From a virus (lineage: Duplodnaviria; Heunggongvirae; Uroviricota; Caudoviricetes): a stretch of DNA of 6,282 nucleotides. Position 1 is the stretch's first letter, and each line of letters opens with the position of its first letter. Location: the IMG/VR virus record IMGVR_UViG_2778261182_000001; one strand, written 5' to 3'. The notes beneath the pieces were generated by a model, which made no database searches, was not told the origin of the DNA, and worked only from the letters and a program-made list of their open reading frames with translations. The position numbers were made by a program, and so were the translations under genes. Shown here one piece after another: positions 1,255-1,890 of this stretch.

Positions 1255-1827
1255 TCATTCCACCAGTTGCTCTTTACGGGCAACGATCCAGCCGCGTTGT
1301 TCCAGATAAAATTTGAACCGTTCCAGAGTGCATACCATCGCATCGGCGGGTACTTTTTCCGTGAAGTCGACCTGACCGTGTTTATCGAAGTGGATCAGTA
1401 ATGCGCATCCATCATTTTCGGTGGGGTAGTTTTGTGTTGCTGGTGGTTGTTTCTTACTGAAATAGCAGTCTTCCAGTTTTTCGAACACATCCCACGCCTG
1501 ATCGGTCTCGAGCTTTTTGGCGTGACGGGCTGCGCCTCGTTCTGTCCAGAGAATGAGGGAGCGGGCTTTCGGGGAAATTTGTAACCCTCTTAAAGATGGT
1601 TGCAAATTTTGTGAGTTACTTAAAGTAACCCGCAAATTTTTCAGGGCATCGCCACCAACTTTGAAAGAGTGTTTTCCCTCAACAAACCTTTCAGCATTAC
1701 GGGTGTAATTGACTTTGATATTGTTGATCTCGGTGCCGTAAAGCTGCGCCAAAAGTTCAGTAGTGATAACGGGGATCTGGTTATGGGTGATCGGGGAGAG
1801 AGTTTCAACAGAGATTTGAGTTGTCAT
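1255..1827 (-). CDS. ORF6N / KilA-N-like domain phage protein (antirepressor-like regulatory protein), 190 aa
   Basis: ATG at 1827 preceded by GAGGG 7 nt upstream. N-terminal half (ITTELLAQLYGTEINNIKVNYTRNAERFVEGKHSFKV ... LWTERGAARHAKKLETDQAW) matches the ORF6N-type DNA-binding domain pattern as I remember it. Followed by a terminator. Same orientation as Q, in the first position after tR'. Confidence 0.7.
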   Translation of the reverse strand: MTTQISVETLSPITHNQIPVITTELLAQLYGTEINNIKVNYTRNAERFVEGKHSFKVGGDALKNLRVTLSNSQNLQPSLRGLQISPKARSLILWTERGAARHAKKLETDQAWDVFEKLEDCYFSKKQPPATQNYPTENDGCALLIHFDKHGQVDFTEKVPADAMVCTLERFKFYLEQRGWIVARKEQLVE

Positions 1828-1857
1828 AATGACGCCCTCGAGTGGTTTCTAAATAAC

Positions 1858-1890
1858 TCACCACCGACGACGCCAATCGTCTGGTGGTGA
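1858..1890 (-). promoter_or_regulatory. Strong imperfect inverted repeat / RNA hairpin in the leader of the ORF6N gene
   Basis: Plus strand tCACCACCgacGACGccaatCGTCtGGTGGTGa: 8-bp outer stem and 4-bp inner stem around a 5-nt loop. Ends 31 nt upstream of the ORF6N ATG and is followed on the minus strand by AGUUAUUUAG. Confidence 0.3.

Follow-up and report, generated by a model that had tools for sequence, protein, structure and literature searches.

The DNA analysed here is a 6,282-nt stretch of a Caudoviricetes virus (IMG/VR record IMGVR_UViG_2778261182_000001), and this whole stretch is called the window below. Its minus strand carries every gene, and all features described are located on that strand. 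Directly after the gene of the Q antiterminator lies an ORF6N-type gene encoding a 190-aa protein (1827–1255, ATG start, TGA stop at 1257–1255), which an earlier note on the same sequence had taken for a Q-dependent late cargo gene preceded by a strong leader hairpin. The present analysis indicates that window positions 2101–1141 very probably form an immI-type antirepressor cassette of a lambdoid prophage, which is orthologous to the isrK–orf45–anrP locus of the Salmonella prophage Gifsy-1, is built like c4–icd–ant of P1, and is governed by an antisense-RNA switch, the ORF6N-type gene being the ortholog of anrP. It is another copy of the C4/IsrK antirepressor system studied in P1 and Gifsy-1, not a new system. 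The variants of its own, as read from the sequence, are the ORF6N-type protein, the absence of icd, a short upstream reading frame, a target site b2 that lies beside the Shine–Dalgarno sequence, and a five-residue truncation of the protein.

Promoter, IsrK-type RNA and C4-type RNA in the leader

The 278 bases that separate the Q gene from the ORF6N gene are packed with RNA elements. At their upstream end, a promoter scan located a sigma-70-type promoter with 10/12 matches (TTGACC at 2101–2096, an 18-nt spacer, and TATATT at 2077–2072), which is the counterpart of PisrK in Gifsy-1 and of P1c4 in P1, and in which TTGAC and GGGGCTATATT were kept at constant spacing in every genomic context examined. 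It is followed by an IsrK-type short RNA (2065–1985) that consists of a 5′ hairpin, a second hairpin, the site b1 and an intrinsic terminator. The Rfam isrK model (RF01394) matched 2065–1989 with 79.5 bits (gathering threshold, 50) over model positions 1–77 of 77, and the c4-a1b1 model (RF03163) matched 2078–2026 with 52.9 bits (gathering threshold, 46.7). The terminator, found by a terminator scan at 2010–1994 plus a T run between Q and the open reading frame (ORF), ends the isrK match. A CAAAAT at +8 to +13 resembles a –10 element, yet it sits in the loop of the conserved 5′ hairpin of IsrK.

Further downstream, a C4-type antisense RNA, named STnc1160 in Salmonella, is located at 1963–1880, where the Rfam C4 model (RF01695) matched over its full length with 71.4 bits (gathering threshold, 45). 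The minimum free energy fold of this region (–43 kcal/mol, z –5.2) agrees with the C4 architecture, that is, a long closing stem (1958–1942 with 1901–1885) and two inner hairpins, and the conserved 3′ motif ...CACCACC is visible on it. In P1, C4 is freed from its precursor by RNase P processing.

Two short sites of the C4 RNA are each complemented twice in the leader. Site a′ (CGCCAA, 1907–1902), at the C4 3′ junction, is complemented by a1 (TTGGCG, 2040–2035) in the loop of the second IsrK hairpin and by a2 (TTGGCG, 1876–1871) in the loop of the leader hairpin. Site b′ (CGGTTTC, 1921–1915), in the loop of the second C4 hairpin, is complemented by b1 (GAAACCG, 2025–2019), 3′ of the second IsrK hairpin, and by b2 (GAAACC, 1849–1844), 4 nt 5′ of the Shine–Dalgarno sequence GAGGG (1839–1835), which itself stands 7 nt before the ATG at 1827; both b2 and the Shine–Dalgarno sequence were read from the sequence. 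A fold prediction of the whole leader left a′ and b′ unpaired, with probabilities of 0.97 and 0.96, respectively.

Co-variation of the C4 loop and its target sites

Viral contigs were scanned for the C4 a′ motif, and more than 80 loci and 86 unique cassettes were obtained; because a′ was held constant in the search pattern, an invariant a2 loop is to be expected and does not count as independent evidence. The loop of the second C4 hairpin was found in 33 versions among the 86 cassettes. A perfect complement of this loop of at least 6 nt (mean 8.0) was present on or beside the Shine–Dalgarno sequence in 90% of them, and a complement within the IsrK region in 76%, compared with 3–5% when loops were combined with the leaders of other cassettes. 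Across the cassettes, changes in the C4 loop go with changes in both the IsrK site and the site near the ribosome-binding site, for example, CGGUUUC with GAAACC and GAAACCG in the window, and CGGUGAU with AUCACCG and UCACCG in Gifsy-1. Loop and targets have diversified jointly, with at least 33 versions, in a pattern that resembles a specificity code for immunity.

The leader of promoter, IsrK, C4 and hairpin precedes ORF6N genes with at least four kinds of C-terminus, as well as Rha-type, Bro-N-type and 77-aa Icd-like genes. Among species representatives, the cassette was present in Escherichia, Shigella, Citrobacter, Enterobacter, Lelliottia, Kluyvera, Serratia, Edwardsiella, Brenneria and others. 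When the DNA was aligned with Gifsy-1, VT2-Sakai and the prophage of Escherichia coli strain 2D, all elements from the promoter to the ATG were conserved.

The leader hairpin and alternative folds

The strong hairpin that the earlier note had seen ahead of the gene proved to be real. It spans 1890–1858, ends 30 nt before the ATG, and encloses the loop TTGGCG in 8 + 5–6 pairs that are interrupted by a one-base bulge. Its folding energy is –22.2 kcal/mol, compared with –9.8 ± 2.4 for shuffled sequences (z = –5.1), and 0/200 shuffles folded as well. In 35 distinct homologous hairpins, 98.3% of the cells were paired vs. 28–65% in slid controls, and compensatory changes were found at 8/12 pairs, with 63 compensatory cells vs. 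22 ± 3.4 in shuffles. Because the window follows the P1 plan of sites, with a′ and b′ predicted unpaired, we identify this hairpin, on sequence grounds, as the a2 stem-loop of a C4-type system, which would present one of the C4 target sites. Of the role suggested for it before, namely attenuation or processing, the functional part stands, while a lone attenuator does not fit a leader that consists of a promoter, IsrK, a terminator, C4 and two C4 target sites.

Six bases of the hairpin 5′ arm (1890–1883) also belong to the 3′ strand of the C4 closing stem (1901–1885), therefore the full hairpin and the full C4 stem are mutually exclusive. Both helices seem to be under selection, because co-variation between the 3′ arm of the hairpin and the shared strand is independent of the C4 5′ strand. 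With the C4 stem formed, 1875–1860 is predicted to pair with 1846–1830 and so to mask the Shine–Dalgarno sequence (–23 kcal/mol, z –3.0). Across cassettes, the Shine–Dalgarno sequence was predicted to be paired at 0.79 of positions vs. 0.63 with shuffled upstream sequence, a modest effect among related sequences, which weakly suggests the masking helix and makes it a lead only.

The ORF6N-type protein

A profile search confirmed the ORF6N domain that the earlier note had called: Pfam ORF6N (PF10543) covers residues 12–104 with 67.5 bits (cut-off, 27.8; E 1.3e-18). The C-terminal part of about 85 residues, described there as unassigned, indeed matched zero Pfam families, even at E ≤ 10 for the last 86 residues. 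The guess of an antirepressor gained support. PHROG 2379 “anti-repressor” matched the whole 190-aa protein (E 5.9e-85), and in a BLASTP comparison the protein was 53% identical over its full length (E 1e-62) to AnrP of Gifsy-1, which induces its prophage, with residues 1–28 identical. Other antirepressor PHROGs matched the first ~130 residues only, and the C-terminal part matched separate PHROGs of unknown function. Thousands of homologs were found in Escherichia, Shigella, Salmonella and Citrobacter, labelled as ORF6N domain proteins or antirepressors. The AlphaFold model (predicted local distance difference test score, 72) shows a winged-helix-like N-terminal domain and a long helix (109–123), then a disordered linker (123–140) and a small beta-hairpin-plus-helix domain (142–177). 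A PDB sequence search returned nothing at E ≤ 1, an NCBIfam search nothing, and PADLOC weak ORF6N-domain matches only. These sequence comparisons support the protein being an antirepressor.

Alternatively, the protein could be a DNA-binding transcription factor instead of a repressor binder, and directly activate early or Q-operon transcription or control other prophages. Such a role would suit the work on Gifsy-1, in which antQ-operon RNA went up and no protein–protein interaction was shown (Hershko-Shalev et al., 2016, PMC4825925). However, antirepressors are what both the family annotations and the precedents of P1 and P22 point to. Moreover, variable C-terminal domains are joined to a constant N-terminal domain among these proteins, an arrangement that fits matching to different repressors, and we consider the transcription factor unlikely.

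The window protein is shorter than its closest homologs, which have 195 aa. A CGA-to-TGA nonsense change (1257–1255) deletes the last five residues, RLMRL, a C-terminus that is nearly invariant among 46 homologs, and the ancestral TAA is kept 15 nt downstream, at 1242–1240. Nothing closer than 95% was found among 5.8 billion proteins. Together with the ~1.1 kb downstream, which has no convincing ORF and shows ~75% similarity to methylase genes, these features would suit a defective prophage whose cassette is decaying and has lost its function, so that its RNAs may still be produced while the protein no longer works. But the loss is limited to 5/195 residues; the promoter, IsrK, C4, the target sites, the Shine–Dalgarno sequence and the ATG are undamaged and differ little from those of functional relatives; and the neighbouring Q, RusA, DUF968 and hok/sok genes are all intact. 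A remnant appears improbable.

The upstream reading frame

A short ORF in the frame of Gifsy-1 orf45 precedes the antirepressor gene. In Gifsy-1, orf45, whose start codon (AUG +107) lies within the C4 5′ strand, overlaps anrP at its end in an ATGA, and translational coupling of the two was found to be necessary (PMC4825925). The equivalent of this AUG in the window is ATG 1959, from which a frame of 33 codons (1959–1858) runs to a TGA at 1860–1858, at the 3′ end of the leader hairpin; a 2-nt deletion relative to Gifsy-1 closes it 30 nt before the main ATG. The 33-codon design is common to ten unique cassettes, including that of VT2-Sakai. A ribosome that ends at 1858 would still unwind the strand masking the Shine–Dalgarno sequence, so that some other form of coupling may persist.

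In more than 50 of the 86 unique cassettes, the AUG in C4 is in frame with the downstream gene without an intervening stop. The downstream gene of these cassettes, in which the ATG lies about 45 nt 5′ of the a′ motif, is Rha- or Icd-like. With this ATG being part of the C4 5′ strand, the C4 RNA region could there be read as an N-terminal extension (MVGWVGAPKGAPVS...) of the Rha- or Icd-like gene.

The cassette promoter in relation to Q

The gene had been assigned to the cargo slot that follows Q in lambdoid phages, and this assignment holds: in phiP27, whose Q is related (49% identity), the slot carries a GIY-YIG nuclease gene, followed by the same terminator element as that at 1222–1085 of the window. 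It had also been proposed that the gene is a Q-dependent late “moron”, transcribed only when Q-modified polymerase reads through tR′, with the hairpin as an extra attenuator or processing site. Consistent with this proposal, the gene stands directly after Q and ahead of the phage tRNA and lysis region, and a promoter with a short terminated RNA is found exactly where PR′–tR′ is expected. The Q stop codon (TAG, 2108–2106) adjoins the –35 hexamer of the cassette, 4 nt before it; in Gifsy-1, and likewise in a Q82-type phage that lacks the cassette, it falls inside the hexamer. The cassette is further found after three Q families, with three unique leaders following Q21-type, six following Q82-type (PF06323) and four following DUF1133 Q-like genes, and the Q stop codon lies 33–41 nt before the start-site region in leaders that follow Q.

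However, the promoter block from about –23 to the start is invariant whether it lies beside Q21-type, Q82-type or DUF1133 genes or beside NinE, and a cognate Q site is unlikely because the block stays constant beside three Q families, each of which needs sites of its own. In detail, Q21 binds direct TGAGCA repeats at –21 and –13, and no such repeats were found in the cassette promoter. The same cassette lies ~2 kb upstream of Q in Stx phages and also follows ninE and other genes, that is, its own promoter travels with it, even into the nin region. In Gifsy-1, the isrK promoter drives anrP, and AnrP raises antQ, not the reverse (PMC4825925). Finally, the leader hairpin lacks a T run and presents in its loop an antisense target that is also conserved in P1. 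Expression under Q control alone is thus unsupported, and the odds are clearly against a Q-dependent moron; although placed in the cargo slot behind Q, the gene has a promoter of its own. By analogy, the antirepressor would act upstream of Q, because AnrP raises antQ expression in Gifsy-1.

A further possibility concerns only those sites where the cassette directly follows Q, as in the window, E. coli 2D, Gifsy-1 and the DUF1133-type elements. The promoter and IsrK might there be the PR′–tR′ unit itself, with IsrK as a late-leader RNA that also binds C4, and Q might switch the output from the short RNA to full-length transcripts of C4 plus antirepressor, IsrK and the P1 a1/b1 leader being one anti-antisense element. 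Examples of late-leader RNAs are lambda 6S and StxS. We regard this possibility as speculative and quite unlikely. If true, a feed-forward loop would link antitermination to repressor inactivation, and co-resident prophages could be induced. The recurrent placement of the cassette at the Q stop codon raises the question whether Q feeds antirepressor expression.

Proposed antisense-RNA switch

For the antirepressor cassette of the window, we infer the following steps, with the prophage's own repressor as the target. The constitutive sigma-70 promoter would start transcription at about 2065, and the majority of transcripts would end at the terminator to give an IsrK RNA of ~80 nt. A read-through minority would extend through the C4 RNA, the a2 hairpin and b2 into the antirepressor mRNA. 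In the lysogen, C4 would pair through a′ with a2 and through its loop b′ with b2, leaving the antirepressor untranslated. Abundant IsrK, carrying a1 and b1, would compete for C4 or remodel the leader and so turn translation on. The ORF6N protein would then inactivate the prophage repressor and cause induction, Q expression included.

Several points weigh against this scheme. The upstream frame of the window lacks the ATGA overlap and stops 30 nt early, so that coupling may differ or not work. Site b2 sits 4 nt upstream of the Shine–Dalgarno sequence, whereas in P1 and most cassettes it is on it. The protein lacks five conserved C-terminal residues and the downstream region looks decayed, so that this copy may be crippled. 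The Gifsy-1 paper shows no protein–protein interaction between AnrP and the repressor. Also in Gifsy-1, a1 mutations in cis raise basal translation and restored a1:a′ pairing lowers it (PMC4825925), two results that a simple model of IsrK as a decoy does not account for. They suggest that pairing of a1/b1 with C4 in cis contributes to repression or C4 maturation as well.

For annotation, post-Q genes labelled “ORF6N domain-containing protein” in many Escherichia, Shigella and Salmonella prophages become readable as C4-repressed antirepressors, and an intergenic “hairpin” beside such genes as the target site of a C4-type antisense RNA.

Neighbouring genes and other features of the window

In the 5′ to 3′ direction of the minus strand, the window contains a DUF551 gene, hok/sok, a rem-like gene, a DUF968 (YdfU-like) gene, rusA, Q, the ORF6N gene, ~1.1 kb of further sequence, and a tRNA. 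The Q gene (2501–2106) encodes a 131-aa antiterminator of the Q21 family (PF06530, E 2.5e-52), which matches the PDB Q21 chains 6p18/6jnx (E 2.6e-7). Among E. coli complete genomes, the best match to window positions 1100–2600, comprising Q, the cassette leader and the ORF, was 96.8%, and the truncated antirepressor allele had no exact match in species-representative genomes. The window probably comes from a divergent Escherichia or a near relative of that genus. The Q genes of O157 and other Shiga toxin-producing E. coli are ~85% identical to window positions 2156–2501 over their first 339–345 nt only and then diverge, and in the E. coli genomes searched the 3′ end of the window's Q allele occurs only alongside the cassette, in 50 genomes.

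The antirepressor gene is followed by a conserved element (1222–1085), read from the sequence, that contains an intrinsic terminator, AAACCCGCC-GATGA-GCGGGTTTTTT (about 1168–1141). This element of ~130 nt is 83–88% identical in phiP27 and many Stx/lambdoid phages, where another cargo gene lies ahead of it and a 65-aa gene, a methylase, tRNAs and stx or lysis genes come after it. The differences between the window and phiP27 in the terminator stem are compensatory. As a candidate for the true PR′, the element is doubtful, as its –35-like TTGAAT is not kept in phiP27 and the terminator is too close behind. Window positions 72–1084 are AT-rich, lack a convincing ORF and show patchy ~75% similarity to phage DNA methylase genes, and are probably a decayed methylase region. 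Within this region, a terminator-like site was noted at 330–313 and a weak STnc100 match (25 bits, E 0.02) at 505–301.

At 71–1, a phage tRNA truncated at its 3′ end by the end of the window was detected (Rfam tRNA, 63.2 bits). It is a tRNA-Thr by similarity, as the sequences matching this region are annotated as tRNA-Thr, and the tRNA and lysis region comes next. ARAGORN reported no tRNA in the window, the truncated one being detected by Rfam alone. The lysis genes are beyond the window; they are present downstream in the closest E. coli prophage, that of strain 2D, in the order of a 65-aa gene, a DNA methyltransferase and the lysis genes.

At 4730–5055, an intact hok/sok type I toxin–antitoxin pair was found (Sok RNA, 120.5 bits; Hok/Gef domain, E 3e-23), which resembles hokD of the Qin prophage in style. 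A weak isrK-like match (26 bits, E 0.012) lies just 3′ of it, at 4721–4640, and probably represents only a terminator.

Comparison with known systems

The closest studied relative is the Gifsy-1 locus, in which Q, a 272-base gap, STM2616 (AnrP, 187 aa), a tRNA and the lysis genes follow one another and which holds a like position. The two share the promoter, IsrK, the terminator, a C4-like RNA, the hairpin and the Shine–Dalgarno sequence, and between the –35 hexamer and the ATG their DNA can be aligned with hardly a gap or shift. By these comparisons the window locus is an ortholog of isrK–orf45–anrP, and its IsrK scores 79.5 bits on an Rfam model that was built from Gifsy-1 IsrK. Of the Gifsy-1 pairing residues, G28/G31 correspond to the two G's of a1 in the window, and their partners C162/C159 fall within a′. 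In Gifsy-1, anrP is transcribed from the isrK promoter and the long transcript is untranslated, IsrK supplied in trans boosts anrP translation >100-fold, and AnrP expression increases antQ-operon RNA and induces the prophage; the stable processed RNA STnc1160 is found downstream of IsrK (PMC4825925). The differences are that Gifsy-1 has a Q82-type Q, whereas that of the window is Q21-type; that the C4 loop and both of its targets are of other sequence; that the orf45 frame of the window, shortened to 33 codons, ends without reaching the main start codon; and that the window protein has a diverged C-terminal domain and is itself five residues short. For isrJ, no Rfam match was found in the window at E ≤ 1, and a different conserved terminator element follows the gene instead.

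The ant cassette of the Stx phage VT2-Sakai (orf34–ant) has a leader 93.8% identical to that of the window and the same 33-codon upstream frame. Its protein of 244 aa is ~65% identical over the N-terminal 130 residues and unrelated in the C-terminal half, and the cassette lies in the nin region between ninE and roi, ~2 kb upstream of Q. Two other phage systems are functional analogues. The sar RNA–ant pair of P22 uses a true cis-antisense RNA of a different family. In P4, the CI RNA with seqA/seqC is likewise a small phage RNA, processed from a leader, that controls immunity, but the RNA family and the outcome differ, as P4 acts by transcription termination. The Gifsy-1 authors likened IsrK to P4 seqA (PMC4825925).

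The P1/P7 immI locus (a1 b1–c4–a2 b2–icd–ant1/ant2) resembles the window cassette in the order of elements, the C4 fold, the loop of the a2 hairpin, the position of b2 beside the ribosome-binding site, the upstream a1/b1 copies followed by a terminator, and an antirepressor as the downstream product. The P1 genome record gives the order as promoters, a1, b1, the 77-nt C4 RNA, a2, b2, icd and ant, and marks a2 and b2 as the targets through which C4 represses icd–ant translation. In P1, a1/a2 (TTGACAG) complement the junction near the C4 3′ end and b1/b2 (GTTAGTG) the loop of the second C4 hairpin, with a2 in the loop of a hairpin directly 3′ of C4 and b2 on the icd Shine–Dalgarno sequence. In contrast to P1/P7, the window has no icd gene and its upstream frame does not overlap the main ATG, its antirepressor is of the ORF6N type and not of the P1 Ant type, the a and b sequences differ, and its cassette is located in a lambdoid prophage after Q, not in the P1 plasmid prophage.

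Previous reports have treated the two RNAs apart. The Gifsy-1 paper makes no mention of P1, C4 or immI (PMC4825925), a 2025 review gives IsrK and c4 as separate systems, and the C4 clan of Rfam does not include isrK; in a paper on APSE phages, both RNAs were noted beside an antirepressor-like gene on the basis of Rfam annotation. When searched with Rfam models, P1 scored 68.8 bits for C4 and 51.0 bits for c4-a1b1. Its a1/b1 leader, including the terminator before c4 (231–312 of the P1 stretch), matched the isrK model with 35.1 bits (E 7e-6), below the cut-off of 50, that is, as a weak IsrK. From these scores we read IsrK as homologous to the P1 a1/b1 leader, and Gifsy-1 IsrK and P1 immI would be the same machine.

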